A program made the translations under genes and the position numbers. From assembly GCA_964019425.1 (NCBI GenBank), contig OZ025787.1, forward strand, positions 496,001-560,000: a stretch of DNA of 64,000 bases, written 5' to 3'. Shown here one piece after another: positions 8,145-61,733 of this stretch (position 1 is the stretch's first letter; the number at the start of each line of letters is the position of its first letter). The DNA comes from Flectonema sp. DT1601. Lineage: Eukaryota. Below the pieces are notes generated by a model. That model ran no database searches, was not told the DNA's origin, and saw only the letters and a program-made list of their open reading frames with translations.

Positions 8145-8368
8145 TGGAAGCATTGTGGTTATAGTATCTCTTGATCTACTATGGAAGCATTGTGGTTATA
8201 GTATCTCTTGATCTACTATGGAAGCATTGTGGTTATAGTATCTCTTGATCTACTATGGAAGCATTGTGGTTATAGTATCTCTTGATCTACTATGGAAGCA
8301 TTGTGGTTATAGTATCTCTTGATCTACTATGGAAGCATTGTGGTTATAGTATCTCTTGATCTACTATG
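8145..8368. repeat. Minisatellite, 37-bp unit x6
   Basis: TGGAAGCATTGTGGTTATAGTATCTCTTGATCTACTA repeated head to tail with no spacers. Confidence 0.95.
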
Positions 8369-8567
8369 CACTGCCGAGACTAATAATATAATTTTCTGTG
8401 GTTAGGTTCAACTTTCTATAACAGAATTGGTGACCCTCAAAGAGCTACCAAGTTCTATTTGAGTGTCTACCCATCCGATACTCGGTGGTCTGATGGACTC
8501 GATAACTATTTCGGTCCTTGTCATTAACTAAGTTAACTCCTCTCTTCAGTTTATCGAATTTCAAACG

Positions 8568-18379: not shown

Positions 18380-18788
18380 AAAAAATATTTTTTGTTACAC
18401 CAACGAAGTTGGAGAGGCTGGAGGTTGTGAGACTGTGCTCAATAAATATTTTGTTGCACCAAGCAGCAGACGCTGGAGGCTGTGCTCAATAAATATTTTG
18501 TTGCACCAAGCAGCAGAGGCTGGAGGCTGTGCTCAATAAATATTTTGTTGCACCAAGCAGCAGAGGCTGGAGACTGTGCTCAATAAATATTTTGTTGCAC
18601 CAAGCAGCAGAGGCTGGAGGCTGTGCTCAATAAATATTTTGTTGCACCAAGCAGCAGAGGCTGGAGACTGTGCTCAATAAATATTTTGTTGCACCAAGCA
18701 GCAGAGGCTGGAGGCTGTGCTCAATAAAAGCTTTTTGTTGCACCAATGAAGTTGGAGAGGCTGAAGGGAGAGGCTGCGCTCAATAAAA
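18380..18788. repeat. Minisatellite, 47-bp unit, about 6 good copies plus degenerate flanking copies
   Basis: GGCTGGAGRCTGTGCTCAATAAATATTTTGTTGCACCAAGCAGCAGA in tandem. Confidence 0.93.
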
Positions 18789-19357
18789 CTTAAGTCTTTT
18801 CTGATTTCTTAGTTCATTTTGTCTGATCGACGATGTTATTTTCTTGCCGAATTTTTTTTTATTTATAATCCTTGACGTCAACAATTATATATTCACTATC
18901 GTACTTTATGAAGTGGGTATCATGTTGTCATTCAGGGCAGTGTTTGTGTCACTTCTTTCTAGTGAGACTTCTAAATTTAGAGATAGTGTGAGCAACCCTC
19001 AATGCAAGGTTCTGGCTGATTGGGGGAGTTTTTTACCATCGACGTAACACGTTGGTATTTTTTGACCTAATCATGTTGGGATTTGGTTCCTTTTGAGTAA
19101 GTGGTCTCTATTGATGTCATTAAGTTTTCTTATATAACAGGCCCCCTATAGGTGAGTAGACCGCGACAGTGAGAAGTGTGATGGAGATAGGGGCGAAAAA
19201 TGCTTTAGGGGTACAAGTATGATCCGAGTACAAATTCTGATAATGTTTTAGTTATAAGTGAAATAATTAGTTTAGAATTGTAACATCGCAGAATTGTAAT
19301 GTAGATTTCAATTTGTAGCTGACGTCATCTTGCTAATAGTTTCAACTTAAACACAAA

Positions 19358-22300
19358 ATGTGTTCTCGCATGATATTATTTGCGTCGTTGATTGCCGTTT
19401 GTCTTTGTTCTGAAGATATGAATCCTGGTGATTCACGTAGTATGACAGACATGAATCATGGTGATCGTGACGGTGAAAAGTTCGAAGAACGTCTCGGCGA
19501 GAAGCGTGATGGAGAAGAACGTGACGATGAGAAACGCGAAGAACGTCTTGGCGAGAAGCGTGATGAAGAAAACCGTAACGGTGTGAAACGTGAAGAACGT
19601 GACGGTATGAAACGTGAAGAACGTCTTGGCGAGAAGCGTGATGGAGAAGAACGTGACGGTGAGAAACGTGAAGAACGTCTCGGCGAGAAGCGTGACGAAG
19701 AAAACCGTGAAGGTGAGAAACGTGAAGAACGTCTTGGCGAGAAGCGTGATGAAGAAAACCGTAACGGTGAGAAACGTGAAGAACGTATTGGCGAGAAGCG
19801 TGATGGTGAAGACCGTGACGGTGAGAAGCCTGAAGAACGTGACGGTGAGAAACGTGAAGAACGTCTTGGCGAGAAGCGTGATGGAGAAGAACGTGACGGT
19901 GAGAAGCCTGAAGAACGTCTTGGCGAGAAGCGTGATGGAGAAAACCGTGATGGTGACAAGCGTGAAGAACGTCTAGGAGAGAAGCGTGATGGTGAAGACC
20001 GTGACGGTGAGAAGCCTGAAGAACGTGACGGTGAGAAGCCTGAAGAACGTCTTGGCGAGAAGCGTGATGGAGAAAACCGTGATGGTGACAAGCGTGAAGA
20101 ACGTCTAGGAGAGAAGCGTGATGGTGAAGACCGTGACGGTGAGAAACGTGGAGAACGTCTTGGCGAGAAACGTGATGGTGAAGACCGTGACGGTGAGAAG
20201 CCTGAAGAACGTGACGGTGAGAAACGTGAAGAACGTCTTGGCGAGAAGCGTGATGGAGAAGAACGTGACGGTGAGAAGCCTGAAGAACGTCTTGGCGAGA
20301 AGCGTGATGGAGAAAACCGTGATGGTGACAAGCGTGAAGAACGTCTAGGAGAGAAGCGTGATGGTGAAGACCGTGACGGTGAGCAACGTGGAGAACGTCT
20401 TGGCGAGAAACGTGATGGTGAAGACCGTGACGGTGAGAAGCCTGAAGAACGTGACGGTGAGAAGCCTGAAGAACGTCTTGGCGAGAAGCGTGATGGTGAG
20501 AAACACGAAGAACGTGACGGTGAGAAACGTGAAAAACGTCTTGGCGAGAAGCGTGATGGAGAAGAACGTGACGGTGAGAAGCCTGAAGACCGTGACGGTG
20601 AGAAACGTGAAGAACGTCTTGGCGAGAAACGTGATGGTGAAGACCGTGACGGTGAGAAGCCTGAAGAACGTGACGGTGAGAAGCCTGAAGAACGTCTCGG
20701 CGAGAAGCGTGATGGAGAAAACCGTGACGGTGAGAAACGTGGAGAACGTCTTGGCGAGAAACGTGATGGTGAAGACCGTGACGGTGAGAAGCCTGAAGAA
20801 CGTCTTGGCGAGAAGCGTGATGGTGAGAAACACGAAGAACGTGACGGTGAGAAACGTGAAGAACGTCTTGGCGAGAAACGTGATGGTGAAGACCGTGACG
20901 GTGAGAAGCCTGAAGAACGTGACGGTGAGAAGCCTGAAGAACGTCTCGGCGAGAAACGTGATGGTGAAAACCGTGACGGTGAGAAGCCTGAAGAACGTCT
21001 TGGCGAGAAGCGTGATGGTGAGAAACACGAAGAACGTGACGGTGAGAAACGTGAAGAACGTCTTGGCGAGAAACGTGATGGTGAAAACCGTGACGGTGAG
21101 AAGCCTGAAGAACGTGACGGTGAGAAGCCTGAAGAACGTCTCGGCGAGAAACGTGATGGTGAAAACCGTGACGGTGAGAAGCCTGAAGAACGTCTCGGCG
21201 AGAAACGTGATGGTGAAAACCGTGACGGTGAGAAGCCTGAAGAACGTGACGGTGAGAAGCCTGAAGAACGTGACGGTGAGAAGCCTGAAGAACGTCTTGG
21301 CGAGAAGCGTGATGGTGAGAAACACGAAGAACGTGACGGTGAGAAACGTGAAGAACGTCTTGGCGAGAAGCGTGATGGAGAAGAACGTGACGGTGAGAAG
21401 CCTGAAGAACGTCTCGGCGAGAAGCGTGATGGAGAAAACCGTGACGGTGAGAAACGTGGAGAACGTCTTGGCGAGAAACGTGATGGTGAAGACCGTGACG
21501 GTGAGAAGCCTGAAGAACGTCTTGGCGAGAAGCGTGATGGTGAGAAACACGAAGAACGTGACGGTGAGAAACGTGAAGAACGTCTTGGCGAGAAGCGTGA
21601 TGGTGAAGACCGTGACGGTGAGAAGCCTGAAGAACGTGACGGTGAGAAGCCTGAAGAACGTCTCGGCGAGAAACGTGATGGTGAAAACCGTGACGGTGAG
21701 AAGCCTGAAGAACGTCTTGGCGAGAAGCGTGATGGTGAGAAACACGAAGAACGTGACGGTGAGAAACGTGAAGAACGTCTTGGCGAGAAACGTGATGGTG
21801 AAAACCGTGACGGTGAGAAGCCTGAAGAACGTGACGGTGAGAAGCCTGAAGAACGTCTCGGCGAGAAACGTGATGGTGAAAACCGTGACGGTGAGAAGCC
21901 TGAAGAACGTCTCGGCGAGAAACGTGATGGTGAAAACCGTGACGGTGAGAAGCCTGAAGAACGTGACGGTGAGAAGCCTGAAGAACGTGACGGTGAGAAG
22001 CCTGAAGAACGTCTTGGCGAGAAGCGTGATGGTGAGAAACACGAAGAACGTGACGGTGAGAAACGTGAAGAACGTCTTGGCGAGAAGCGTGATGGTGAAG
22101 ACCGTGACGGTGAGAAGCCTGAAGAACGTGACGGTGAGAAACGTGAAGAACGTCTCGGCGAGAAGCGTGATGGAGAAGAACGTGACGGTGAGAAGCCTGA
22201 AGACCGTGACGGTGAGAAACGTGAAGAACGTCTCGGCGAGAAGCGTGATGGTGAAGAACGTGACGGTGAGAAACGTGATGGTGAGGAGCCTGAAGAACGT

Positions 22301-23725
22301 CTTGGCGAGAAGCGTGATGGAGAAGAACGTGACGGTGAGAAACGTGAAGAACGTCTTGGCGAGAAGCGTGATGAAGAAGAACGTGACGGTGAGAAACGTG
22401 AAGAACGTCTCGGCGAGAAGCGTGATGGAGAAGAACGTAACGGTGAGAAACGTGAAGAACGTCTTGGCGAGAAGCGTGATGAAGAAGAACGTGACGGTGA
22501 GAAACGTGAAGAACGTCTCGGCGAGAAGCGTGATGGAGAAGAACGTGACGGTGAGAAGCCTGAAGACCGTGACGGTGAGAAACGTGAAGAACGTCTCGGC
22601 GAGAAACGTGATGGAGAAGAACGTGACGGTGAGAAGCCTGAAGACCGTGACGGTGAGAAACGTGAAGAACGTCTCGGCGAGAAGCGTGATGGTGAAGAAC
22701 GTGACGGTGAGAAACGTGATGGTGAGGAGCCTGAAGAACGTGAAGGTGAGAACCGTGATGGAGAAAACCGTGACGGCGAAAAACGTGGTAGTGAAGACCG
22801 TGATGGAGAAAAACATGATGGTGAGAAACATGATGGTGAGAAACGTGATGGTGAGAAACGTGAAGAACGTGACGGCGATAATCGTGATGGGGAAAACCGT
22901 AATGGTGAGAAACGTGAAGAACGTGACGGTGACAAACGCGAAGAACGTCTTGGCGAGAAGCGTGATGGTGAAGACCATGACGGAGAGGAACATGATGGTG
23001 AGAATCGTGATGTAGAAAAAAGAGAAAAACGTGAAGATGGAGATTACGAAGAAAGTAACGAAGGTAAGTATGAACTCTCCAGAAAGTCTTTGCGTACCGT
23101 CCTTAAAGTACAGAAGTCACCATCTCAGATAGCATTTGGTCAATTGAGAGACGCTGTTTTGAAATCAGCCAACAAGAACGGTGTTGTCGTGAAAGATGTT
23201 GCAATTCTGTTTGCTTGTCCGATTTCCGCATGTGTTTCCCTTGTGTGCCCTGATACGGTTGAGTTAAGAGCTGCTGTTGGATGTGTGGAGGGGAGCGAAA
23301 GAGAGGTTTCTATTAGTGAGTCAGGTTCATCAATTGTTGAATACCATTTGACGATGGAGAAGGGAGCGAGTTTCAGCAACGCTGTTGAGAATATTGAATC
23401 TGACGTCTCGGCAGTCGGTGACTCTTCGAACAATTCCAATGTATTCACAGGAACGAATGTTGTGGCTGCCAGTTCTCTTGTTGAAGTAGATCACGACGAC
23501 GATGGTGATGATGACGACAAGAACAACGTGTTGGTTATTATTGGAAGCATTTGCCTTGTGCTGCTCACTTGTGTTGTGATCGCTGTTATATACGGCTGTT
23601 GCTTCAGAAAGAAAAAATACGAAAAGAGTGACATCGAATCACCAATGTCTTCAGGTAAAGCATTTGAATTAAAAGACGCTGAGATAGAAGAAGTCATCTT
23701 TGAGTCTCGAGCATCCAGTATTTGA
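19358..23725 (+). CDS. Charged-repeat type I membrane protein, paralog 1 (1455 aa)
   Basis: Signal peptide, about 1200 aa of E/R/D/G/K repeats, Cys-containing domain, TM (VLVIIGSICLVLLTCVVIAVIYGCCF), RKKK stop-transfer, short tail. Confidence 0.9.
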   Translation: MCSRMILFASLIAVCLCSEDMNPGDSRSMTDMNHGDRDGEKFEERLGEKRDGEERDDEKREERLGEKRDEENRNGVKREERDGMKREERLGEKRDGEERDGEKREERLGEKRDEENREGEKREERLGEKRDEENRNGEKREERIGEKRDGEDRDGEKPEERDGEKREERLGEKRDGEERDGEKPEERLGEKRDGENRDGDKREERLGEKRDGEDRDGEKPEERDGEKPEERLGEKRDGENRDGDKREERLGEKRDGEDRDGEKRGERLGEKRDGEDRDGEKPEERDGEKREERLGEKRDGEERDGEKPEERLGEKRDGENRDGDKREERLGEKRDGEDRDGEQRGERLGEKRDGEDRDGEKPEERDGEKPEERLGEKRDGEKHEERDGEKREKRLGEKRDGEERDGEKPEDRDGEKREERLGEKRDGEDRDGEKPEERDGEKPEERLGEKRDGENRDGEKRGERLGEKRDGEDRDGEKPEERLGEKRDGEKHEERDGEKREERLGEKRDGEDRDGEKPEERDGEKPEERLGEKRDGENRDGEKPEERLGEKRDGEKHEERDGEKREERLGEKRDGENRDGEKPEERDGEKPEERLGEKRDGENRDGEKPEERLGEKRDGENRDGEKPEERDGEKPEERDGEKPEERLGEKRDGEKHEERDGEKREERLGEKRDGEERDGEKPEERLGEKRDGENRDGEKRGERLGEKRDGEDRDGEKPEERLGEKRDGEKHEERDGEKREERLGEKRDGEDRDGEKPEERDGEKPEERLGEKRDGENRDGEKPEERLGEKRDGEKHEERDGEKREERLGEKRDGENRDGEKPEERDGEKPEERLGEKRDGENRDGEKPEERLGEKRDGENRDGEKPEERDGEKPEERDGEKPEERLGEKRDGEKHEERDGEKREERLGEKRDGEDRDGEKPEERDGEKREERLGEKRDGEERDGEKPEDRDGEKREERLGEKRDGEERDGEKRDGEEPEERLGEKRDGEERDGEKREERLGEKRDEEERDGEKREERLGEKRDGEERNGEKREERLGEKRDEEERDGEKREERLGEKRDGEERDGEKPEDRDGEKREERLGEKRDGEERDGEKPEDRDGEKREERLGEKRDGEERDGEKRDGEEPEEREGENRDGENRDGEKRGSEDRDGEKHDGEKHDGEKRDGEKREERDGDNRDGENRNGEKREERDGDKREERLGEKRDGEDHDGEEHDGENRDVEKREKREDGDYEESNEGKYELSRKSLRTVLKVQKSPSQIAFGQLRDAVLKSANKNGVVVKDVAILFACPISACVSLVCPDTVELRAAVGCVEGSEREVSISESGSSIVEYHLTMEKGASFSNAVENIESDVSAVGDSSNNSNVFTGTNVVAASSLVEVDHDDDGDDDDKNNVLVIIGSICLVLLTCVVIAVIYGCCFRKKKYEKSDIESPMSSGKAFELKDAEIEEVIFESRASSI

Positions 23726-24988
23726 AAAGGAATGATAGTGACATTTTCTTTAATTAGATGATGTTAGTTCTATACAGTTTGTTCCTTGGTAAGATTACAA
23801 GAGTATATTTTTATTTGTTTCCATCTAATTAATTTGTCTATCTACTTTGCACATTGCTATTTGAAAAATATCTGTCTGCCGTTTTCGAATGCTTTGTGGA
23901 TTTCGACTTTTTGAAGTTTCTTTTTTTCTTTTTCGTTTCGGGAATCACGAATTTAATTGAATTTAATCTTTTTGCAACCATCGCAAAGAGAAATGTGAAT
24001 CAAACTCATATTTCGGCAAGTTAATTTTAACTTGTTGTTTCTAACATTTTATAAGAACCTCATTAATTAAGTTCTTATTGTAGAGGAAATTAAGCCACTG
24101 TTTTCTTTGGCATGTTATCTCCCAAGTTATTGAATAATATTTCCTCCCTTTTGTTTAACTAGGTCACAGGCCAAGTTTATTGATTTATATTATCCTCTCT
24201 TTTCTATTTCTGATGTCTTTACATTCGAATTCTTTGAGGAAATTAATTTTTATAAGTTTTCTCTTATTGAATTGAATTTCATTGCGACGAGCTCTTCTGG
24301 TTGTTGGTCTTCCACAACTAAATTGTTAATCCTCGAAAGTAAATTATAATTCTTCAGTACATTATTTATATTTCAACTTACAGGAAGCTTTCAACACAAG
24401 CTCAGCTGATGTGAAATCTTCGCTTATTTATTGTTTGAATTGATTTCACGACATGAAATAGAGAGCCTTCGGATAATTACTTTCTTTTCTTAGAAAATGC
24501 CCCCTTCAATACAAGGCTACGAAGTATAAAACAACATTGAGGAACTATATTGTAGATGACAAGCATTTGGAGTTTTAAAAACTAATAAAGGTTTGAGATG
24601 ATGTTTTTGAAGTTATAATTTTATGACTGTTGTTCGCTGATAAAACTTTTAACAATATGATATACTTGTACCCCTTTAAAGGGTAATTTCAAAAAATGAA
24701 ACAGAAATAAAGGGTGCCGAAAGAAACGCTTCGTACTTCTGGCGGTGCCATGAGACTCGGACACATCCATAGAATACAGTCTGAGCATGAGTGGAAACCT
24801 TTTTGTTTTTTTATTATTTATTCCCAATAAACATAACTCAGCCCCACTCATTTTGTTGGTATCCCGCGTTCACTGATATTTATACAGGGGGACTGTGTTA
24901 AATGGTGGAAGAAATAACGATGTTGACGTGGTCCCTTGGCTGAGAAGGGCAAACGCGATGAGTAGGACAGGCCTGACACCGCAGTGTC

Positions 24989-25067
24989 CCCCTTACTTTC
25001 TTCGCAGAAGAGAGCTGGGTAAGGGGAATGGTCCGAAGAAAGATTTTTTTATTTTAGCCCGAAACCA
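24989..25067 (+). ncRNA. Rearranged hammerhead-like ribozyme, family B (core mutated to CAGAAGA)
   Basis: Stem I CTTTCTTCG 24996-25004 / CGAAGAAAG 25034-25042. Core 25005-25011. Stem II GAGCTGG / TTAGCCC then GAAA 25061. Stem III TGGT / ACCA, site GTC at 25033. Extra helix CCCCTTA / TAAGGGG. Confidence 0.7.
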
Positions 25068-25362
25068 ACCATTATTTGTTTGTTGTCCTCCGAACTTTTG
25101 CATTCTATTGAATTTTGCCGCCTTCTCCCCTTCTTTTGACTGATAACCATAAATACTAACTAAAAACCTTTAATTTGCATCAAATCCGATTTATTACCCC
25201 TTTAATTTTCCCCCGTACAAGTATGATCCGAGTATTAATTCTGATAATGATTTAGTTATAAGTGAAATGATTAGTTTTAGAATTTTAACATCGCAGAATT
25301 GTAATGTAGATTTTAATTTGTAGCTGACGTCATCTTGCTAATAGTTTCAACTTAAACATAAA

Positions 25363-28300
25363 ATGTGTTCTCGCATGATATTATTTGCGTCGTTGATTGC
25401 CGTTTGTCTTTGTTCTGAAGATATGAATCCTGGTGATTCACGTAGTATGACAGACATGAATCATGGTGATCGTGACGGTGAAAAGTTCGAAGAACGTCTC
25501 GGCGAGAAGCGTGATGGAGAAGAACGTGACGATGAGAAACGCGAAGAACGTCTTGGCGAGAAGCGTGATGAAGAAAACCGTAACGGTGTGAAACGTGAAG
25601 AACGTGACGGTATGAAACGTGAAGAACGTCTTGGCGAGAAGCGTGATGGAGAAGAACGTGACGGTGAGAAACGTGAAGAACGTCTTGGCGAGAAGCGTGA
25701 TGAAGAAAACCGTAACGGTGAGAAACGTGAAGAACGTCTAGGCGAGAAGCGTGACGAAGAAAACCGTAATGGTGAGAAACGTGAAGAACGTGAAGGTGAG
25801 AAACGTGAAGAACGTCTAGGCGAGAAGCGTGATGAAGAAAACCGTGACGGTGAGAAACGTGAAGAACGTATTGGCGAGAAGCGTGATGAAGAAGAACGTG
25901 ACGGTGAGAAACGTGAAGAACGTCTTGGCGAGAAGCGTGATGAAGAAAACCGTGACGGTGTGAAACGTGAAGAACGTGAAGGTGAGAAACGTGAAAAACG
26001 TCTTGGCGAGAAGCGTGATGAAGAAAACCGTGACGGTGAGAAACGTGAAGAACGTGAAGGTGAGAAACGTGAAGAACGTCTTGGCGAGAAGCGTGATGAA
26101 GAAAACCGTAACGGTGAGAAACGTGAAGAACGTGACGGTATGAATCGTGAAGAACGTCTTGGCGAGAAGCGTGATGGAGAAGAACGTGACGGTGAGAAAC
26201 GTGAAGAACGTATTGGCGAGAAGCGTGATGAAGAAAACCGTAATGGTGAGAAACGTGAAGAACGTGAAGGTGAGAAACGTGAAGAACGTCTAGGCGAGAA
26301 GCGTGATGAAGAAAACCGTAATGGTGAGAAACGTGAAGAACGTCTTGGCGAGAAGCGTGATGAAGAAAACCGTAATGGTGAGAAACGTGAAGAGCGTCTT
26401 GGCGAGAAGCGTGATGAAGAAAACCGTAACGGTGAGAAACGTGAAGAACGTGACGGTATGAATCGTGAAGAACGTCTTGGCGAGAAGCGTGATGGAGAAG
26501 AACGTGACGGTGAGAAACGTGAAGAACGTATTGGCGAGAAGCGTGATGGAGAAGACCGTGACGGTGAGAAACGTGAAGAACGTATTGGCGAGAAGCGTGA
26601 TGAAGAAGACCGTGACGGTGAGAAACGTGAAGAACGTATTGGCGAGAAGCGTGATGAAGAAGAACGTGACGGTGAGAAACGTGAAGAACGTATTGGCGAG
26701 AAGCGTGATGAAGAAGAACGTGACGGTGAGAAACGTGAAGAACGTGACGGTATGAATCGTGAAGAACGTCTTGGCGAGAAGCGTGATGGAGAAGAACGTG
26801 ACGGTGAGAAACGTGAAGAACGTATTGGCGAGAAGCGTGATGAAGAAGACCGTGACGGTGAGAAACGTGAAGAACGTATTGGCGAGAAGCGTGATGAAGA
26901 AGAACGTGACGGTGAGAAACGTGAAGAACGTATTGGCGAGAAGCGTGATGAAGAAGAACGTGACGGTGAGAAACGTGAAGAACGTATTGGCGAGAAGCGT
27001 GATGAAGAAGAACGTGACGGTGAGAAACGTGAAGAACGTATTGGCGAGAAGCGTGATGAAGAAAACCGTGACGGTGTGAAACGTGAAGAACGTGAAGGTG
27101 AGAAACGTGAAGAACGTCTTGGCGAGAAGCGTGATGAAGAAGAACGTGACGGTGAGAAACGTGAAGAACGTGACGGTGAGAAACGTGAAGAACGTATTGG
27201 CGAGAAGCGTGATGAAGAAAACCGTAACGGTGTGAAACGTGAAGAACGTGAAGGTGAGAAACGTGAAGAACGTCTTGGCGAGAAGCGTGATGGAGAAGAA
27301 CGTGACGGTGAGAAACGTGAAGAACGTCTCGGCGAGAAGCGTGATGGAGAAGAACGTGACGGTGAGAAACGCGAAGAACGTCTTGGCGAGAAGCGTGATG
27401 AAGAAAACCGTGACGGTGTGAAACGTGAAGAACGTGAAGGTGAGAAACGTGAAGAACGTCTTGGCGAGAAGCGTGATGGAGAAGAACGTGACGGTGAGAA
27501 ACGCGAAGAACGTCTTGGCGAGAAGCGTGATGAAGAAAACCGTGACGGTGTGAAACGTGAAGAACGTGAAGGTGAGAAACGTGAAGAACGTCTTGGCGAG
27601 AAGCGTGATGAAGAAAACCGTAACGGTGTGAAACGTGAAGAACGTGAAGGTGAGAAACGTGAAGAACGTATTGGCGAGAAGCGTGATGAAGAAAACCGTA
27701 ACGGTGTGAAACGTGAAGAACGTGAAGGTGAGAAACGTGAAGAACGTCTCGGCGAGAAGCGTGATGGAGAAGAACGTGACGGTGAGAAACGTGAAGAACG
27801 TATTGGCGAGAAGCGTGATGAAGAAAACCGTGACGGTGTGAAACGTGAAGAACGTGACGGTGAGAAACGCGAAGAAAGTCTCGGTGAGAAGCGTGATGAA
27901 GAAAACAGTGACGGTGAGAAACGTGAAGAACGTCTAGGCGAGAAGCGTGACGAAGAAAACCGTAACGGTGAGAAACGTGAAGAACGTGACGGTATGAATC
28001 GTGAAGAACGTCTTGGCGAGAAGCGTGATGGAGAAGAACGTGACGGTGAGAAACGTGAAGAACGTATTGGCGAGAAGCGTGATGAAGAAAACCGTGACGG
28101 TGAGAAACGTGAAGAACGTATTGGCGAGAAGCGTGATGAAGAAAACCGTGACGGTGTGAAACGTGAAGAACGTGACGGTGAGAAACGCGAAGAAAGTCTC
28201 GGTGAGAAGCGTGATGAAGAAAACAGTGACGGTGAGAAACGTGAAGAACGTCTAGGCGAGAAGCGTGACGAAGAAAACCGTAACGGTGAGAAACGTGAAG

Positions 28301-29766
28301 AACGTGACGGTATGAATCGTGAAGAACGTCTTGGCGAGAAGCGTGATGGAGAAGAACGTGACGGTGAGAAACGTGAAGAACGTATTGGCGAGAAGCGTGA
28401 TGAAGAAAACCGTGACGGTGAGAAACGTGAAGAACGTATTGGCGAGAAGCGTGACGAAGAAAACCGTAACGGTGAGAAACGTGAAGAACGTGACGGTATG
28501 AATCGTGAAGAACGTCTTGGCGAGAAGCGTGATGGAGAAGAACGTAACGGTGAGAAACGTGAAGAACGTATTGGCGAGAAGCGTGATGAAGAAAACCGTG
28601 ACGGTGAGAAACGTGAAGAACGTCTCGGTGAGAAGCGTGATGAAGAAAACCGTGACGGTGAGAAACGTGAAGAACGTCTCGGTGAGAAGCGTGATGAAGA
28701 AAACCGTGACGGTGTGAAACGTGAAGAACGTGACGGTGAGAAACGCGAAGAAAGTCTCGGTGAGAAGCGTGACGAAGAAAACCGTGTCGGTGAGGAACGT
28801 GAAGATCGTGACGGTGAGAAACGCGAAGAAAGTCTCGGTGAGAAGCCTGATGAAGAAAACCGTGATGGTGAGAAACACGATGAACTTGACGGTGAAAAAC
28901 GTGAAGAACATCTTGGCGAAAACCGTGACGGTGAGAAACGCGGAGAACGTCTCGGCGAGAAGCGTGATGGAGAAGAACGTGACAATGAGAAACGTAAAAA
29001 CCGTGATGGTGAGAAACGTGATGGTGAAAAACGTGATAGTGAGAATCATGATGTAGAAAGAAGAGAAGCACGTGACGATGGAGATTACGAAGAAAGTAAC
29101 AAAGGTAAATATGAACTCTCCAGAAAGTCTTTGCGTACCGTCCTTAAAGTACAGAAGTCACCATCTCAGATAGCATTCGGTCAATTGAGAGACGCTGTTT
29201 TGAAATCAGCCAACCAGAACGGTGTTATCGTGAGGGATGTTGCAATTCTGTTTGCTTGTCCGATTTCCGCATGTGTTTCACTTGTGTGCCCTGATACGGT
29301 TGAGTTAAGAGCTGCTGTTGGATGTGTGGAGGGGAGCGAAAGAGATGTTTCTATTAGTGAGTCAGGTTCATCAATTGTTGAATACCATTTGACGATGGAG
29401 AAGGGAGCGAGTTTCAGCAACGCTGTTGAGAATATTAAATCTGACGTCTCGGCAGTCAGTGACTCTTCGAACAATTCCAATGTATTCACAGGAACGAATG
29501 TTGTGGCTGCCAGTTCTCTTGTTGAAGTAGATCACGACGATGATGGTGATGATGACGACAAGAACAATGTGTTGGTTATTATTGGAAGCATTTGCCTTGT
29601 GCTGCTCACTTGTGTTGTGATCGCTGTTATATACGGCTGTTGCTTCAGAAAGAAGAAATACGAAAAGAGTGACATCGAATCACCAATGTCTTCAGGTAAA
29701 GCATTTGAATTAAAAGACGCTGAGATAGAAGAAGTCATCTTTGAGTCTCGAGAATCCAGAATCTGA
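25363..29766 (+). CDS. Charged-repeat type I membrane protein, paralog 2 (1467 aa)
   Basis: Same N- and C-termini as paralog 1, different repeat mix. Confidence 0.9.
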   Translation: MCSRMILFASLIAVCLCSEDMNPGDSRSMTDMNHGDRDGEKFEERLGEKRDGEERDDEKREERLGEKRDEENRNGVKREERDGMKREERLGEKRDGEERDGEKREERLGEKRDEENRNGEKREERLGEKRDEENRNGEKREEREGEKREERLGEKRDEENRDGEKREERIGEKRDEEERDGEKREERLGEKRDEENRDGVKREEREGEKREKRLGEKRDEENRDGEKREEREGEKREERLGEKRDEENRNGEKREERDGMNREERLGEKRDGEERDGEKREERIGEKRDEENRNGEKREEREGEKREERLGEKRDEENRNGEKREERLGEKRDEENRNGEKREERLGEKRDEENRNGEKREERDGMNREERLGEKRDGEERDGEKREERIGEKRDGEDRDGEKREERIGEKRDEEDRDGEKREERIGEKRDEEERDGEKREERIGEKRDEEERDGEKREERDGMNREERLGEKRDGEERDGEKREERIGEKRDEEDRDGEKREERIGEKRDEEERDGEKREERIGEKRDEEERDGEKREERIGEKRDEEERDGEKREERIGEKRDEENRDGVKREEREGEKREERLGEKRDEEERDGEKREERDGEKREERIGEKRDEENRNGVKREEREGEKREERLGEKRDGEERDGEKREERLGEKRDGEERDGEKREERLGEKRDEENRDGVKREEREGEKREERLGEKRDGEERDGEKREERLGEKRDEENRDGVKREEREGEKREERLGEKRDEENRNGVKREEREGEKREERIGEKRDEENRNGVKREEREGEKREERLGEKRDGEERDGEKREERIGEKRDEENRDGVKREERDGEKREESLGEKRDEENSDGEKREERLGEKRDEENRNGEKREERDGMNREERLGEKRDGEERDGEKREERIGEKRDEENRDGEKREERIGEKRDEENRDGVKREERDGEKREESLGEKRDEENSDGEKREERLGEKRDEENRNGEKREERDGMNREERLGEKRDGEERDGEKREERIGEKRDEENRDGEKREERIGEKRDEENRNGEKREERDGMNREERLGEKRDGEERNGEKREERIGEKRDEENRDGEKREERLGEKRDEENRDGEKREERLGEKRDEENRDGVKREERDGEKREESLGEKRDEENRVGEEREDRDGEKREESLGEKPDEENRDGEKHDELDGEKREEHLGENRDGEKRGERLGEKRDGEERDNEKRKNRDGEKRDGEKRDSENHDVERREARDDGDYEESNKGKYELSRKSLRTVLKVQKSPSQIAFGQLRDAVLKSANQNGVIVRDVAILFACPISACVSLVCPDTVELRAAVGCVEGSERDVSISESGSSIVEYHLTMEKGASFSNAVENIKSDVSAVSDSSNNSNVFTGTNVVAASSLVEVDHDDDGDDDDKNNVLVIIGSICLVLLTCVVIAVIYGCCFRKKKYEKSDIESPMSSGKAFELKDAEIEEVIFESRESRI

Positions 29767-31020
29767 AAAGGATTGATAGTGACATTTTCTTTAATTAGAT
29801 GATGTTAGTTCTATACAGTTTGTTCCTTGGTAAGATTACAAGAGTGTATTTTTATTTGTTTCCATCTAATTAATTTGTCTATCTACTTTGCACATTGCTA
29901 TTTGAAAAATATCTGTCTGCCGTTTTCGAATGCTTTGTGGATTTCGACTTTTTGAAGTTTCTTTTTTTTCTTTTTCGTTTCAGGAATCACGAATTTAATT
30001 GAATTTAATCTTTTTGCAACCATCGCAAAGAGAAATGTGAATCAAACTCATATTTCGGCAAGTTAATTTTAACTTGTTGTTTCTAACATTTTATAAGAAC
30101 CTCATTAATTAAGTTCTTATTGTAGAGGAAATTAAGCCACTGTTTTCTTTGGCATGTTATCTCCCAACTTATTGAATAATATTTCCTCTCTTTTGTTTAA
30201 CTAGGTCACAGGCCAAGTTTATTGATTTATATTATCCTCTCTTTTCTATTTCTGATGTCTTGACATTCGAATTCTTTGAGGAAATTTATTTTTATAAGTT
30301 TTCTCTTATTGAATTGAATTTCATTGCGACGAGCTCTTCTGGTTGTTGGTCTTCCACAACTAAATTGTTAATCCTCGAAAGTAAATTATAATTCTTCAGT
30401 ACATTATTTATATTTTAACTAACAGGAAACTTTCAAAAAATGAAACAGATATAAAGGAGGGCTTTCCCACCCACTTTATTCCCCTTTATTTTGAAGTAAA
30501 AAGAGGTCCGGCGCAGTTATGACCTTAAACTGACTATCATCTTGCCTGATCCTTTTGGTTTTCATTTCTTGCTGAGTGATATTGCTATGTGCCCCCCTCT
30601 TTTATTTTCTTTAGTTGTTTACAAACTGTTAGCCTCTGGGAATGGTGGGAGCTGGAAGTCGATCACTTCCAGCCAAAGCAATAAAACTACAATCTTCGCG
30701 ATTGGTTCCTAACGGATGCTGGCTATCCGGACCTCTCGTAGTCATCAGTTTGTATTTTGCTAACTAAATAACTAAAGGTAAGGGGAATGGTCCGAAGAAA
30801 GATTGTTGAATCTTAGCCCGAAACCAACCATTATTATTTGTTTGTTGTCCTACGAGCCTTTTCATTCGATTGAATTTTCCCACCCTCTCCCCTTCTTTTG
30901 ACTGATAACCATTAATACTAACTAAAAACTGGTCTAGCCCGTCCTGGCGAGCTCCGATGGACATTAGGAAATCAGTTCTTTTGAAATCGACCAAATGATG
31001 GATCCGATTTATTAGTTAAC

Positions 31021-31103
31021 TGGAATGAAGTCCCTAGAACTTACTGATGAAGGCCTAAGAGGGACAAGTAGTATAAGATTAAGGCCTGAAACTACGTATT
31101 CCA
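31021..31103 (+). ncRNA. Rearranged hammerhead ribozyme, family A, copy 1 (intact core)
   Basis: CTTA-CTGATGA(31044-31050)-AGGCCT ... GTAGT-A(31073)-TAAG ... AGGCCT-GAAA(31088)-CTAC. Extra helix GTCCCT/AGGGAC; closing helix TGGAAT/ATTCCA. Confidence 0.82.
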
Positions 31104-31218
31104 CAGTGTATTATGGAACAGCAAAACAATGTGTTTTTGTAATTTTTCTTTGTTATATTTTTATTTTAGTGCACTTTTTTATAATAAACTCAAATTCTGA
31201 CTAAAAACTGGTCCAAGG

Positions 31219-31518
31219 ATGACTCACTTTATTGTTGCGCTAGTCTCATTTGAGTCCATGATCATCCGAGACATTCTTAAAGGCACAAAGGATTTAAGAC
31301 TCCCTTTTGATCATTTTGACAAGATGTACCGAACTACAGAATATAGTTTCCATATGATACCATTAAAAGCTCAGGCTGATATGGATGTTACAATGACACC
31401 TGCGAATATAGGACCTTTGATGGTATGCGAAGATAAAGTAAAACGCAAATTGGATGACGACTCATCCATTAACTCGACTGTAATAGTGAAACGACCAAAC
31501 GTCAAAAATTCAAATTAA
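31219..31518 (+). CDS. Small hypothetical ORF (99 aa) between two hammerhead copies
   Basis: ATG-initiated ORF that nearly fills a ~324-nt insert in the repeat unit; no recognisable family. Confidence 0.3.
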   Translation: MTHFIVALVSFESMIIRDILKGTKDLRLPFDHFDKMYRTTEYSFHMIPLKAQADMDVTMTPANIGPLMVCEDKVKRKLDDDSSINSTVIVKRPNVKNSN

Positions 31519-31683: not shown

Positions 31684-31914
31684 TATTACCCTTTGATGTT
31701 AGGAAACTGTGGAAATGAATACTTTTCTTTTACTAATCTCTACTTTTCTTATTCTCACTTTTCTGTTCTAAAATTATTGATACTAACTAAAAACTCTCCC
31801 CTTCTTTTGACTGATAACCATTAATACTAACTAACTCCTGGCGAGCTCCGATGGACATTAAGAAATCAGTTCTTTTAAAATAGACCAATTGATGGATCCG
31901 ATTTATTATTTAAC

Positions 31915-32000
31915 TGGAAAGAAGTCCCTAGAACTTACTGATGAAGGCCTAGAAAGGGACAAGTAGTATAAGATTAAGGCTCCTGAAACTACGTATTCCA
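31915..32000 (+). ncRNA. Rearranged hammerhead ribozyme, family A, copy 3 (intact core)
   Basis: CTGATGA 31938-31944, predicted site after A31968, GAAACTAC downstream. Confidence 0.8.
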
Positions 32001-32410
32001 CAGTGTATTATTGAACAGCAGAACAATGTGTTTTTATAACTTTTCTTTTTTATATTCTATTTTAGTGCACTTTTTTTTTATACACTCATATTCTAACTAA
32101 AAACCTTTTGACTGATAACTGATAACCATCTAAGCCAGAAACCTTCTTGTTTGTTGTCCTACGAAATTTTGCTTTTTTTTTGATTGACTGATAATATTTA
32201 ATACTAACTAAAAACCTTTAATTTGCATTAAATCCGATTTATTTCCCCTTTAATTTTCCCCCGTACAAGTATGATCCGAGTATTAATTCTGATAATGATT
32301 TAGTTATAAGTGAAATAATTAGTTTTAGAATTTTAACATCGCGGAATTGTAATGTAGATTTTAATTTGTAGCTGACGTCATCTTGCTAATAGTTTCAACA
32401 TAAACACAAA

Positions 32411-35400
32411 ATGTGTTCTCGCATGATATTATTTGCGTCGTTGATTGCCGTTTGTCTTTGTTCTGAAGATATGAATCCTGGTGATTCACGTAGTATGACT
32501 GACATGAATCATGGTGATCGTGACGGTGAAAAAATTGAAAAACGTGACAGCGAGAAACGTGAAGAACGTCTCGGCGAGAAGCGTGATGGAGAAAACCGTG
32601 ACGGTGAGAAACGTGAAGAACGTCTTGGCGAGAAGCGTGATGGAGAAGAACGTGACGGTGAGAAACGTGAAGAACGTCTTGGCGAGAAGCGTGATGGAGA
32701 AGAACGTGAAGGTGAGAAACGTGAAGAACGTCTTGGCGAGAAGCGTGATGGTGAAGAACGTGACGGTGAGAAACGTGAAGAACGTCTCGGCGAGAAGCGT
32801 GATGGAGAAGAACGTGAAGGTGAGAAACGTGAAGAACGTCTTGGCGAGAAGCGTGATGGTGAAGAACGTGAAGGTGAGAAACGTGAAGAACGTCTTGGCG
32901 AGAAGCGTGATGGTGAAGAACGTGACGGTGAGAAACGCGAAGAACGTGATGGTGAGAAACGCGAAGAACGTCTTGGCGAGAAGCGTGATGGAGAAGAACG
33001 TGACGGTGAGAAACGTGAAGAACGTCTCGGCGAGAAGCGTGATGGAGAAGAACGTGAAGGTGAGAAACGTGAAGAACGTCTTGGCGAGAAGCGTGATGGT
33101 GAAGAACGTGAAGGTGAGAAACGTGAAGAACGTCTTGGCGAGAAGCGTGATGGAGAAGAACGTGAAGGTGAGAAACGTGAAGAACGTCTTGGCGAGAAGC
33201 GTGATGGTGAAGAACGTGACGGTGAGAAACGCGAAGAACGTGATGGTGAGAAACGCGAAGAACGTCTCGGCGAGAAGCGTGATGTAGAAAACCGTGATGA
33301 AGAAGAACGTGATGGTGAGAAACGTGAAGAACGTCTTGGCGAGAAGCGTGACGAAGAAAACCGTGACGGTGAGAAACGTGAAGAACGTCTCGGCGAGAAG
33401 CGTGATGGAGAAGAACGTGAAGGTGAGAAACGTGAAGAACGTCTTGGCGAGAAGCGTGATGGAGAAGAACGTGAAGGTGAGAAACGTGAAGAACGTCTTG
33501 GCGAGAAGCGTGATGGTGAAGAACGTGACGGTGAGAAACGCGAAGAACGTGATGGTGAGAAACGTGAAGAACGTCTTGGCGAGAAGCGTGATGGTGAAGA
33601 ACGTGACGGTGAGAAACGTGAAGAACGTCTTGGCGAGAAGCGTGATGGTGAAGAACGTGACGGTGAGAAACGCGAAGAACGTGATGGTGAGAAACGCGAA
33701 GAACGTCTCGGCGAGAAGCGTGACGAAGAAAACCGTGACGGTGAGAAACGTGAAGAACGTCTTGGCGAGAAGCGTGACGAAGAAAACCGTGACGGTGAGA
33801 AACGTGAAGAACGTCTCGGCGAGAAGCGTGATGGAGAAGAACGTGAAGGTGAGAAACGTGAAGAACGTCTTGGCGAGAAGCGTGATGGTGAAGAACGTGA
33901 CGGTGAGAAACGCGAAGAACGTCTTGGCGAGAAGCGTGATGGAGAAGAACGTGAAGGTGAGAAACGTGATGGTGAAGACCGTGACGGTGAGAAACGTGAA
34001 GAACGTCTTGGCGAGAAGCGTGACGAAGAAAACCGTGACGGTGAGAAACGTGAAGAACGTCTCGGCGAGAAGCGTGATGGAGAAGAACGTGAAGGTGAGA
34101 AACGTGAAGAACGTCTTGGCGAGAAGCGTGATGGTGAAGAACGTGACGGTGAGAAACGCGAAGAACGTCTTGGCGAGAAGCGTGATGGTGAAGAACGTGA
34201 TGGTGAGAAACGCGAAGAACGTCTCGGCGAGAAGCGTGATGTAGAAAACCGTGATGGTGATAAACGTGAAGAACGTCTTGGCGAGAAGCGTGATGGAGAA
34301 GAACGTGACGGTGAGAAACGCGAGGAACGTCTTGGCGAGAAGCGTGATGGAGAAGAACGTGACGGTGAGAAACGTGATGGTGAAGACCGTGACGGTGAGA
34401 AACGCGAAGAACGTCTTGGCGAGAAGCGTGATGGAGAAGAACGTGAAGGTGAGAAACGTGAAGAACGTCTTGGCGAGAAGCGTGATGGAGAAGAACGTGA
34501 CGGTGAGAAACGTGAAGAACGTCTCGGCGAGAAGCGTGATGGAGAAGAACGTGACGGTGAAAAACGCGAAGAACGTCTTGGCGAGAAGCGTGATGGAGTA
34601 GAACGTGACGGTGAGAAACGTGATGGTGAAGACCGTGACGGTGACAAGCCTGAAGAACGTGACGGTGAGAAACGTGAAGAACGTCTTGGCGAGAAGCGTG
34701 ATGGAGAGGAACGTGAAGGTGAGAAACGTGAAGAACGTCTTGGCGAGAAGCGTGATGGAGAAGAACGTGACGGTGAGAAACGTGAAGAACGTCTTGGCGA
34801 GAAGCGTGATGGAGAAGAACGTGACGGTGAGAAACGTGAAGAACGTCTCGGCGAGAAGCGTGATGGAGAAGAACGTGACGGTGAAAAACGCGAAGAACGT
34901 CTTGGCGAGAAGCGTGATGGAGTAGAACGTGACGGTGAGAAACGTGATGGTGAAGACCGTGACGGTGACAAGCCTGAAGAACGTGACGGTGAGAAACGTG
35001 AAGAACGTCTTGGCGAGAAGCGTGATGGAGAGGAACGTGACGGTGAGAAGCCTGAAGAACGTGACGGTGAGAAACGTGAAGAACGTCTAGGAGAGAAGCG
35101 TGATGGTGAAGACCGTGACGGTGACAAGCCTGAAGAACGTGACGGTGAGAAACGTGAAGAACGTCTTGGCGAGAAGCGTGATGGAGAGGAACGTGACGGT
35201 GAGAAGCCTGAAGAACGTGACGGTGAGAAACGTGAAGAACGTCTAGGAGAGAAGCGTGATGGTGAAGACCGTGACGGTGACGAGCCTGAAGAACGTGACG
35301 GTGAGAAACGTGAAGAACGTCTTGGCGAGAAGCGTGATGGAGAGGAACGTGACGGTGAGAAGCCTGAAGAACGTGACGGTGAGAAACGTGAAGAACGTCT

Positions 35401-36409
35401 AGGAGAGAAACGTGATGGTGAAGACCGTGACGGTGAGAAGCCTGAAGACCGTGACGGTGAGAAACGTGATGGTGAAGAGCCTGAAGAACGTGACGGTGAG
35501 AACCGTGATGGAAAAAACCGTGACGGCGAAAAACGTGGTAGTGAAGACCGTGATGTAGAAAAACATGATGGTGAGAAACGTGAAGAACGTGACGGCGATA
35601 ATCGTGATGGTGAAAACCGTAATGGTGAGAAACGTGAAGAACGTGACGGTGACAAACGCGAAGAAGGAGAGGAACATGATGGTGAGAATCGTGATGTAGA
35701 AAAAGGAGAAAAACGTGAAGATGGAGATTACGAAGAAAGTAACGAAGGTAAGTATGAACTCTCCAGAAAGTCTTTGCGTACCGTCCTTAAAGTACAGAAG
35801 TCACCATCTCAGATAGCATTCGGTCAATTGAGAGACGCTGTTTTGAAGTCAGCCAACAAGAACGGTGTTGTCGTGAAAGATGTTGCAATTCTGTTTGCTT
35901 GTCCGAATTCCGCATGTGTTTCCCTTGTGTGCCCTGATACGGTTGAGTTAAGAGCTGCTGTTGGATGTGTGGAGGGGAGCGAAAGAGATGTTTCTATTAG
36001 TGAGTCAGGTTCATCAATTGTTGAATACCATTTGACGATGGAGAAGGGAGCGAGTTTCAGCAACGCTGTTGAGAATATTGAATCTGACGTCTCGGCAGTC
36101 GGTGACTCTTCGAACAATTCCAATGTATTCACAGGAACGAATGTTGTGGCTGCCAGTTCTCTTGTTGAAGTAGATCACGACGATGATGGTGATGATGACG
36201 ACAAGAACAACGTGTTGGTTATTATTGGAAGCATTTGCCTTGTGCTGCTCACTTGTGTTGTGATCGCTGTTATATACGGCTGTTGCTTCAGAAAGAAAAA
36301 ATACGAAAAGAGTGACATCGAATCACCAATGTCTTCAGGTAAAGCATTTGAATTAAAAGACGCTGAGATAGAAGAAGTCATCTTTGAGTCTCGAGAATCC
36401 AGAATCTGA
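32411..36409 (+). CDS. Charged-repeat type I membrane protein, paralog 3 (1332 aa)
   Basis: Same termini as paralogs 1 and 2. Confidence 0.9.
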   Translation: MCSRMILFASLIAVCLCSEDMNPGDSRSMTDMNHGDRDGEKIEKRDSEKREERLGEKRDGENRDGEKREERLGEKRDGEERDGEKREERLGEKRDGEEREGEKREERLGEKRDGEERDGEKREERLGEKRDGEEREGEKREERLGEKRDGEEREGEKREERLGEKRDGEERDGEKREERDGEKREERLGEKRDGEERDGEKREERLGEKRDGEEREGEKREERLGEKRDGEEREGEKREERLGEKRDGEEREGEKREERLGEKRDGEERDGEKREERDGEKREERLGEKRDVENRDEEERDGEKREERLGEKRDEENRDGEKREERLGEKRDGEEREGEKREERLGEKRDGEEREGEKREERLGEKRDGEERDGEKREERDGEKREERLGEKRDGEERDGEKREERLGEKRDGEERDGEKREERDGEKREERLGEKRDEENRDGEKREERLGEKRDEENRDGEKREERLGEKRDGEEREGEKREERLGEKRDGEERDGEKREERLGEKRDGEEREGEKRDGEDRDGEKREERLGEKRDEENRDGEKREERLGEKRDGEEREGEKREERLGEKRDGEERDGEKREERLGEKRDGEERDGEKREERLGEKRDVENRDGDKREERLGEKRDGEERDGEKREERLGEKRDGEERDGEKRDGEDRDGEKREERLGEKRDGEEREGEKREERLGEKRDGEERDGEKREERLGEKRDGEERDGEKREERLGEKRDGVERDGEKRDGEDRDGDKPEERDGEKREERLGEKRDGEEREGEKREERLGEKRDGEERDGEKREERLGEKRDGEERDGEKREERLGEKRDGEERDGEKREERLGEKRDGVERDGEKRDGEDRDGDKPEERDGEKREERLGEKRDGEERDGEKPEERDGEKREERLGEKRDGEDRDGDKPEERDGEKREERLGEKRDGEERDGEKPEERDGEKREERLGEKRDGEDRDGDEPEERDGEKREERLGEKRDGEERDGEKPEERDGEKREERLGEKRDGEDRDGEKPEDRDGEKRDGEEPEERDGENRDGKNRDGEKRGSEDRDVEKHDGEKREERDGDNRDGENRNGEKREERDGDKREEGEEHDGENRDVEKGEKREDGDYEESNEGKYELSRKSLRTVLKVQKSPSQIAFGQLRDAVLKSANKNGVVVKDVAILFACPNSACVSLVCPDTVELRAAVGCVEGSERDVSISESGSSIVEYHLTMEKGASFSNAVENIESDVSAVGDSSNNSNVFTGTNVVAASSLVEVDHDDDGDDDDKNNVLVIIGSICLVLLTCVVIAVIYGCCFRKKKYEKSDIESPMSSGKAFELKDAEIEEVIFESRESRI

Positions 36410-37389: not shown

Positions 37390-38330
37390 CATGGAGCCTA
37401 AGAAGAAATTAACAGTTGGCACGCAGACAGGGCCGTGCAGTCTTTGTTGAAGAACAAAAGAGGAGGACGAAAGGAGAACTACTAAAGAAGAAGATGAAAT
37501 CTGGGAGACCAACCATCTAAACTACTGATGAGGAAGTAAGGGTAATCGAGAATATCCGTGACTATGGTGGCTGTGTTTGCATCGATGGTTTCAAGCACAC
37601 GGAGGATAGTGCTTTCAAGTGATGACCACTGCGAAAGTAGCGCCTTAGCTCGGAGCGCATCTCTAGTGCTCGAGTCCGTGGTGCAATTCCTGACAGTATG
37701 GTAATAAACTTTGACCACACTCAGTGTCTGATGCTTCCGTCTTCCATCCAGCAAGCGGATCTTCGATGTCAACCGTTCACGAGGGAATAGCAGTTGGGTC
37801 AACTCCACAAGATCGTGTCTCAATACCGAAATGAGGTGCTGTTAACGGGTACTCTGAAGGGGTGGGCGAACGAATCAAGAACCATCGAGTACGTTGAGAA
37901 AACAATAATCCCATACTTCACTTAGAAACGCCAAGCCGAGCTGAGGCAATCAGATCACCCTGGCTCTCAGTATATGACCAGTTAGGGGAAGGATAACTGA
38001 GGAGGTCCTTCGTCGCTTTGAAGAAGCAAATATCGGTGTATTGGTGCCAGACGGGTGGACTTCCCATTTCCAGCCACTGCATCTAACTGTCATCAGCACT
38101 TCAAAAGAAGCATCAAGCTTTCCTTTGGACGGTGACTGACAGAGCAGATGCGTAAGCGGGAGGAAGAGTTGAAAAAAATAAAAGCAAAAAAGCTGATGGA
38201 AAAGCTTTAAAGTGCGCTGATCCAAAAGGATGCTTGTGTATCTGGACGCAACCTCTATAGTTATCAAGCACCACCAGGTTGGTATGCGGAGGTGCACTTC
38301 TGTAAACGTGGCAACGATCATTTCGATTCT
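37390..38330 (+). pseudogene. Decayed pogo/Tigger-like DDE transposase
   Basis: Hand translation gives GWANESRTIEYVEKTIIPYFT* (about 37860) and VLVPDGWTSHFQPLHLTV (about 38040), matching DDE_1 motifs (W-x-N...IIPY; P-x-x-x-TS-x-x-QPLD), with stops and frameshifts. Limits approximate. Confidence 0.7.
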
Positions 38331-38613
38331 GGACCGAGATTAATCCTAACAGCCTGCCTTGGTACAAGATAGAACTGTAGCCAGTTCGGATGTCTATAAT
38401 GTTGAATCAGAAAGTTAAAAAAAAAAGAAAAAGTTTTTTTTTCCAAATTCCGAATTTTGCTATGTATATGAGTGTTTCTCTACTAAAAAAAACATAGTGT
38501 CCCTTAATGATGGTCATTTTTTGGAGATTTGGAGACTTTTTATACACCATGTTGTTCATAACTACAGTATTTAAATTATTTTATAATTTAAATTAATTAA
38601 ATTAGTATCAAGT

Positions 38614-40018: not shown

Positions 40019-40231
40019 AAAAGCCAATTCTTTTTTGCTGCACTAAACAACTCGGTTGTCGGAGGTAAAAAGAATGTTGGCAGTACATAAACGTGCCTTT
40101 AGTTTTTCAGTTACAAAACAAAACTAATTTAATGTTTACTGCAGCTAACGATTTATGTAGTTTTTAAATTAAACCGATTCTTTTTAAAAACCAACCGAGT
40201 TGTTTAGTGCAGCAAAAAAGAATTGGCTTTT
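40019..40231. repeat. Perfect 40-bp inverted repeat, arms 40019-40058 and 40192-40231 (MITE-like)
   Basis: AAAAGCCAATTCTTTTTTGCTGCACTAAACAACTCGGTTG and its reverse complement. Confidence 0.9.
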
Positions 40232-53085: not shown

Positions 53086-53391
53086 TATAAGATTAAGGCC
53101 TGGAGGGGGACAAGTAGTATAAGATTAAGGCTCCTGAAACTACGTATTCCACAAGTGTTTTATGGAACAGCAGAACAATTGTGTTTTGTAGGTTTTCTTT
53201 TTTTTATATTTTGATTTAGTGCAGCTATCTTATAATAAACTTATATTCTAATATTCCAGTCAAACGCAATGAGTAGGACTAGCCTGACACCGCGGTGCCC
53301 CTTTGCTTTCTTCGCTAACCATTATTAGGTTAGTTGTCCTACGAATTTTTGCATTTAATCTTTTTGATTGACTGCTAACTATTAATACTAA
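53086..53391 (+). mobile_element. Truncated copy of the ribozyme-bearing repeat: family A lacking CTGATGA, then family B with its core deleted, then the linker
   Basis: GGGACAAGTAGTATAAGATTAAGGCTCCTGAAACTACGTATTCCA at about 53107-53151; ATGAGTAGGAC...CTTTCTTCGCT|AACCATTATT...GTCCTACGAA at about 53269-53345. Confidence 0.8.
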
Positions 53392-61652: not shown

Positions 61653-61733
61653 TGGAATGAAGTCCCTTAGGACTTACTGATGAAGGCCTAAAAAGAGACT
61701 AGGTAGTATGAGAGGCCTGCAAATGCGTGTTCT
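61653..61733 (+). ncRNA. Degenerate family A hammerhead copy
   Basis: CTTA-CTGATGA(61677-61683)-AGGCCT ... GTAGTA-TGAG-AGGCCT-GCAA. GAAA and stem III are damaged; flanks match copy 2. Confidence 0.7.

Follow-up and report, generated by a model that had tools for sequence, protein, structure and literature searches.

The hammerhead ribozyme can be divided into three blocks, C, S and G, and the arrangement designated type CSG is a permutation of these blocks that is not circular (Eckert et al. 2023, PMC10085705). According to the parts of that paper drawn on here, type CSG was published from five soil-metagenome sequences (two unique, and similar), not associated with other ribozymes; single units of CSG-1 and CSG-2 cleave during transcription, at low rates of 0.004 and 0.026 per min, and the evidence for the type was called weaker by its authors, as resting on two similar sequences. 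Among Penelope-like elements (PLEs), Naiad and Chlamys have been reported without canonical hammerheads (Craig et al. 2021, PMC8557442). The sections of that report used here mention unexplained hammerhead core halves 35-50 nt apart in some Naiads, describe one orientation, 5′ truncation and tandem nesting for non-autonomous Chlamys elements, and have no occurrence of Euglenozoa. Animal retrozymes are reported as PLE derivatives in the cited portion of a preprint (bioRxiv 10.64898/2026.07.22.740005). In the open-access literature, a scope outside which subscription papers and bioRxiv supplements fall, the searches found no paper that connects CSG hammerheads with retroelements or with diplonemids.

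The whole 64-kb stretch of DNA that was analysed (the window) carries its long genes on the + strand. Its rpS3 matches a Flectonema neradi protein at 98%, entries labelled Rhum and Hpha (which we take to be Rhynchopus humris and Hemistasia phaeocysticola) at 85-87% and Diplonema papillatum at 80%; these similarities identify the host as a Flectonema-like diplonemid. Both rpS3 and a second gene, presumably glucosamine-6-phosphate synthase-like, are tandemly duplicated; together with 37-nt and 47-nt tandem arrays, the duplicates occupy 6596-10122, 44597-49744, 8108-8440 and 18382-18757. Three tandem paralogues (19340-23725, 25345-29766 and 32393-36409) likely encode a surface protein whose long charged repeats have a period of 54 nt and whose C-terminal part includes a hydrophobic segment, and repeat arrays lie just upstream of the second and third of them. 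Other features are an isolated fragment of eukaryotic LSU rRNA (38710-39282), scattered 28S pieces having been reported in D. papillatum; a 213-nt MITE-like element with perfect 40-nt terminal inverted repeats (40019-40231); and about 1 kb of broken coding-like sequence (37390-38400), possibly a transposon relic, for which none of the three frames tried gave a Pfam match.

Upstream of the second surface-protein paralogue lies a decayed copy of a type CSG hammerhead, designated family B, with the following parts:

24989..25067, + strand: decayed copy of the family B type CSG hammerhead, with core change U4A and a mismatch at stem II pair 2, from the letters, with an intact version in the X1 contigs described below
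24989..24995, + strand: first strand of the extra helix 24989-24995/25020-25026, 7/7 Watson-Crick, which ties stems I and II
24996..25019, + strand: block C, comprising the stem I 5′ strand, the core (25005-25011) and the stem II 5′ strand
25029..25042, + strand: block S, comprising a stem III strand, the predicted cut after C25033 (site by analogy with CSG-1 and CSG-2) and the stem I 3′ strand
25053..25067, + strand: block G, comprising the stem II 3′ strand, GAAA at 25061-25064 and a stem III strand

The blocks thus follow one another as C (stem I, core, stem II), S (stem III, GUC, stem I) and G (stem II, GAAA, stem III). Stem I (24996-25004/25034-25042) is paired at 9/9 positions and stem III (25029-25032/25064-25067) at 4/4, while stem II (25012-25019/25053-25060) consists of four Watson-Crick pairs, three G-U pairs and one mismatch (A25013.C25059), the only one in a fold whose 28 pair positions comprise 24 Watson-Crick and three G-U pairs. 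All three stems adjoin the core, which reads CAGAAGA without an intact CUGAnGA; an AA linker (25027-25028) lies between the extra helix and stem III, the GTC site ends at C25033, and the linker between blocks S and G is 10 nt long. Every motif that the first-pass annotation had placed here, including the swapped order, the CAGAAGA core and the stem II mismatch, was found again in the letters. The architecture is not an undescribed one: the topology is already known as type CSG (PMC10085705, in the parts cited above), and family B is a new, independent family of this very rare type.

A CSG descriptor with one core mismatch permitted, run over both strands of the 64 kb, matched at two places, the family B copy (score 30) and a hammerhead of another family, A, at 31044. 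A score of 30 was reached in none of 810 block-wise dinucleotide shuffles, the maximum being 26; the score includes three extra-helix pairs that overlap stem I, and the shuffles were scored likewise. Rfam (E up to 10) gave ten matches in the window and a hammerhead in none, a silence that is expected because the block order is non-nested; the Rfam models, being nested, are uninformative here. The four-helix fold of family B is almost certainly real.

Other features count against a working ribozyme. Stem III is short (4 bp), and in the window copy a 6-bp rival register (25027-25032 with 25068-25073, -4.5 vs -2.5 kcal/mol) would displace GAAA; in the nested minimum-energy fold, a stem I strand pairs with the core (z -0.30). 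Hammerheads are usually regarded as disabled by changes in the core, and even U4C considerably lowers activity, as stated in the portion of PMC3088659 consulted; a search of the literature for the effect of U4A itself found no published case. Judged by its letters, the window copy, with both U4A and the stem II mismatch, would probably be slow or dead, and there is good reason to expect that its cleavage is strongly impaired.

One public marine metatranscriptome run (X1) matched part of the stretch. Four of its contigs were placed on 24640-25230, and the two that cover the core both have T25006, which gives the canonical core, G25013, which restores the mismatched stem II pair, and G24995, which changes an A-U pair to G-U and keeps the extra helix. 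The ancestral CTGAAGA that had been predicted from the window is therefore present, with T25006 and G25013 in 2/2 contigs covering both positions. The deepest contig (record 1; 389 nt, depth 25.5) spans 24752-25101 and includes the whole ribozyme. It reads C25053, like the window copy at 30777, turning a stem II G-U pair into G-C; it has 22 differing letters, and those listed, apart from the changes named above, lie in the linker or 3′ to stem III. It also has a 6-nt deletion near 25070, where the competing stem III register lies. A third contig has C25065G, which breaks stem III unless its partner, outside the contig, also changed, and one contig carries a piece of family A upstream of the family B core. 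The start of record 4 at 25035, one base off the predicted 3′ product, was left unused, as contigs cannot show RNA ends.

The strain or species behind the X1 contigs is a related one, and their origin in an RNA library is not proof of transcription. They supply one intact full-length family B sequence, from one run. The pair changes within family B are all one-sided (A-U to G-U, G-U to G-C), none being two-sided and compensatory; across families, including A and two that are introduced below, different pairs stand at equivalent positions. By analogy with the ribozymes already described, intact family B RNA is expected with high confidence to cleave.

The ribozyme belongs to a repeat unit that is present in the window in several states:

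24752..25167, + strand: visible extent of the family B repeat unit, which is non-coding and ends in a 12-mer common with family A (X1 record 1 for 24752-25101, end motif)
30777..30929, + strand: 5′-truncated family B copy that retains block S, block G and the tail (blastn 89.5%, alignment)
31794..31834, + strand: fragment of a family B tail with a family A unit on either side (blastn, end motif)
32128..32215, + strand: worn remnant of a family B 3′ part, with the block G region and the tail (alignment)
53261..53391, + strand: family B copy with the ribozyme deleted after the stem I 5′ strand and CT, directly behind a family A remnant (blastn, alignment)

Family B is thus represented by four copies or remnants and one tail fragment, with five family A units interspersed among them on one strand, and all four copies are broken or partial. 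The deleted copy that had been noted near 53315 is real (match at 53261-53355); two others, a copy at 30777-30929 that holds blocks S and G (89.5% identical) and a 3′ remnant spanning roughly 32128-32215, are additional to the first-pass annotation. The units form head-to-tail, same-strand arrays, 5′-truncated and constant at the 3′ end. The 12-mer recurs at six unit ends, three from each family and all on one strand (25156, 30918, 31197, 31783, 32093 and 32204; one mismatch in one of them). Only this end is common to the two families, and it could be either an element end or a duplicated target; as had been claimed, families A and B are otherwise unrelated in sequence (98/200 shuffles align equally well). 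The family B copies do not begin at the predicted cut, the one at 30777 beginning about 16 nt before it, and the paralogous gene (19131-19340) offered no clean empty insertion site. Searches of the window by tblastn with 27 and with 54 PLE proteins (for the 54 proteins, matches inside the three large repeat genes were excluded) revealed no PLE coding sequence beside any family B copy; besides weak or low-complexity matches, only 31204-31515 was matched. Pfam found nothing significant in 11 short frames near the repeats.

Three further observations concern the surroundings of these repeats. A 25-nt tail with TACTAAC occurs at 25136, 30898, 31807, 32184, 53368, 60528 and 61601 (seven matches, against zero expected), mostly upstream of genes, where it might affect trans-splicing; we take the TACTAAC in the shared end to resemble a spliceosomal branch point. 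The segment 30535-30775 is another repeat (X1 contig depth about 20), in which the X1 differences create GAAAC and several short helices near GTAGTC; it was considered as a third ribozyme and rejected, no hammerhead block order having fitted, and it may be a third structured RNA. A short repeat is present at 24662-24714, 8020-8070 and 30431-30457, in two cases just upstream of the hammerhead repeat arrays.

Family A, which has the same topology, stands next to a recognizable retroelement:

31030..31095, + strand: family A type CSG hammerhead, intact, with its core at 31044, GTA site at 31073 and GAAA at 31088
31204..31518, + strand: 3′ end (104 codons and the stop) of a Chlamys-type Penelope-like retroelement ORF, 5′-truncated copy, 93% to the C-terminus of P0133 and P0127
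31608..31677, + strand: family A hammerhead with its core at 31623, 105 nt behind the PLE stop codon, and a 2-nt stem II insertion
31924..31992, + strand: family A hammerhead, third copy, with the same 2-nt stem II insertion
53086..53251, + strand: family A remnant, the match to which begins 2 nt before the predicted cut
61662..61726, + strand: degenerate family A hammerhead, with GCAA replacing GAAA

The remnant that starts 2 nt from the predicted cut is a hint of cutting, from a single case. P0133 and P0127, proteins of 1279 and 1350 aa, belong to a cluster of 59 members. P0133 has an N-terminal GVIY..YVGQT motif of GIY-YIG type, then CxC, DKG and RYIDD, and an RT of PLE type. Its GIY-YIG motif is at residue 252 and the 40 residues before it contain no cysteines, so CX2-5CxxC/CCHH zinc fingers are absent; Pfam support for the GIY-YIG domain is weak in P0133 (E 0.15) and stronger in its relatives (E 5.7e-5). 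P0133 groups with PLE proteins of Diplonema (D. papillatum) and Rhynchopus (the Rhum entry), and some relatives carry Josephin. As far as its sequence indicates, the protein linked to family A has the features of Chlamys PLEs.

A protein search of genome contigs yielded 11 PLE loci (L010-L020), all of which were scanned with the CSG descriptor. Full CSG hammerheads were found 3′ of the ORF at two of the 11, L012:4371 (with U after the core) and L014:5159, both in Naiad elements of other organisms; their scores were 33 and 35, whereas no score above 27 arose among 5406 shuffled sets, and the L014 hammerhead stands 117 nt before the next head-to-tail unit. The scan also gave a weak SGC match in L010, and five of seven inspected Naiad loci had no CSG match in the 3′ region. 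Loci in which the N-terminus is present have zinc fingers of Naiad type. Nine loci from a pattern scan of metagenomes were set aside as chance, since the block of stem II, GAAA and stem III was seen by eye in 0/9 (GC 49-64%), and 27 pattern matches in viral contigs included no PLE relatives. The 11 contigs are filed in bacterial and archaeal genome bins and are probably eukaryote contamination. Behind the Naiad ORFs of three of them are CUGAnGA cores that are not CSG (L016:4940, L010:3391 and L011:3276), with GAAA upstream of the core in L010 and L011 and a multi-helical appearance in L016. In each tandem unit of L014, an ORF (214-867 and 5487-6050) with weak similarity to the L1 ORF1 trimerization domain (E 0.046) lies ahead of the Naiad ORF.

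Family B resembles L012 and L014 no better than shuffles do (40/200 and 179/200, respectively, align as well). The claim that the topology is real is supported by four sequence-distinct families (B, A, L012 and L014) and by agreement with the published CSG-1/2 alignment. The AA linker that had been noted in both window families is also present in CSG-1 and is not general, the linker of L014 being longer. An RT tree of 20 rows (L010 left out because its search motif is absent; L017, L018 and L020 not included; no named Chlamys rows) places the Naiad-type rows and the diplonemid group apart with 100/100 support. CSG carriers occur in each of the two, as judged from the rows for which there is DNA, a distribution compatible with one origin or with two. 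With family A behind a Chlamys-type ORF and CSG hammerheads behind two Naiad ORFs, CSG hammerheads are likely the terminal-repeat ribozymes of Naiad/Chlamys elements. They are not universal in the clade, given that no CUGAnGA was seen by eye in the 3′ end of Chlamys-1_cBra, in the part of the PMC8557442 supplement that was covered.

The explanation preferred for the locus at 24989-25067, with somewhat better than even confidence, is that it is a decayed CSG hammerhead in a short non-coding diplonemid repeat, of which intact copies are predicted to cut after C25033 and which was likely copied by a Chlamys-type PLE, either as a terminal repeat or as a non-autonomous derivative. Movement of family B by a PLE protein, taken separately, is likely, the connection of family B itself to such an element being indirect. 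The repeat would be transcribed inside long polycistronic or tandem precursors, in which the extra helix and stem I would fold first and stems II and III would close once block G had been made; the cut after GUC would then free a unit-length RNA, which the GIY-YIG/RT protein could insert by target-primed reverse transcription at a nicked target, often 5′-truncated and beside earlier copies.

Alternatively, the ribozyme may be real and active in an independent retrozyme-like or SINE-like repeat that is moved by another enzyme or route (a diplonemid LINE, a SLACS-type RT, an RNA circle) and lies beside family A only through a shared preference for branch-point-like sites upstream of genes. The missing PLE ORF beside family B, the lack of any common sequence with family A beyond the end motif, the TACTAAC within that motif, the related tails at 60528 and 61601 that have no family B ribozyme, and the many other RT elements of Diplonema (PMC10161547) would all suit such a repeat. 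It is nevertheless unlikely: family B has the same rare topology as the PLE-linked hammerheads of family A, L012 and L014; its one orientation, 5′ truncation and tandem nesting are those described for non-autonomous Chlamys elements (PMC8557442, sections cited); and animal retrozymes are themselves reported as PLE derivatives (bioRxiv 2026.07.22.740005, portion cited).

The working core might form mainly between two RNAs or two tandem units rather than as a double pseudoknot in one strand, as the short stem III and the strong local hairpin alternative could suggest and as may hold for some retroelement hammerheads, which may need dimers (PMC3088659, in part); but the extra helix and short linkers suit a one-strand fold, the same linkage is kept in all four families, and single-unit CSG-1 and CSG-2 cleave during transcription (PMC10085705, parts cited), which leaves the dimer highly improbable. 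Just as small a chance is given to the fold being a non-catalytic relic or a protein-binding structure of which no family B copy cleaves usefully fast. The breakage of all four window copies and the slowness of published CSG ribozymes (0.004 and 0.026 per min; PMC10085705, parts cited) would fit a relic, whereas the deepest X1 contig retains the full core and all helices and one family A remnant, a single case, starts within 2 nt of the predicted cut.

The four further families, distinct in sequence and alike in their four helices, put the CSG fold on much firmer ground and place it in a biological setting. With them comes a testable answer to the question of how Naiad and Chlamys elements spread seemingly without the hammerhead that other PLEs carry: searches for nested hammerheads are blind to the CSG order, and the missing RNA cutter of these elements is likely a CSG hammerhead, its cutting being predicted. 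A broader proposal, to which slightly less than an even chance is given, is that CSG hammerheads are the hidden terminal-repeat ribozymes of the ancient Naiad/Chlamys clade, in both of the lineages parted by its deepest split (protist Chlamys-type elements and animal Naiads), that a single diplonemid genome maintains two or more CSG families unrelated in sequence, possibly one for each PLE family, and that the knotted order postpones the cut until transcription has reached the end of the unit.

Compared with the portions of the published descriptions drawn on here, family B is closest in form to CSG-1 and CSG-2 (PMC10085705), with which it has in common the block order C-S-G, the GUC site, an extra helix that pairs sequence ahead of stem I with sequence following stem II, and a linker of 2 nt before stem III, in 79 nt as against a 66-nt motif. 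It differs from them in its stem sequences (by eye), in the lengths of stem I (9 vs 6 bp), the S-G linker (10 vs about 5 nt) and stem III (4 vs 5), in its location in a eukaryote nuclear repeat instead of soil metagenomes, and in the broken core of its window copy. Chlamys elements (PMC8557442) are matched by the protein linked to family A in its N-terminal GIY-YIG without Naiad zinc fingers, its CxC and DK motifs, its PLE RT and the Josephin of its close relatives, as in Chlamys-1_cBra, and by the tandem, 5′-truncated copies; in contrast, there is a non-circularly permuted hammerhead at the 3′ end here, and family B has no coding part in view. The non-LTR retrozymes (bioRxiv 10.64898/2026.07.22.740005) are likewise short, non-coding, tandem hammerhead repeats proposed to be non-autonomous PLE derivatives, but they come from animals, pseudoknotted or permuted hammerheads are not mentioned in the portion of the preprint cited, and family B is known from DNA and contigs alone.
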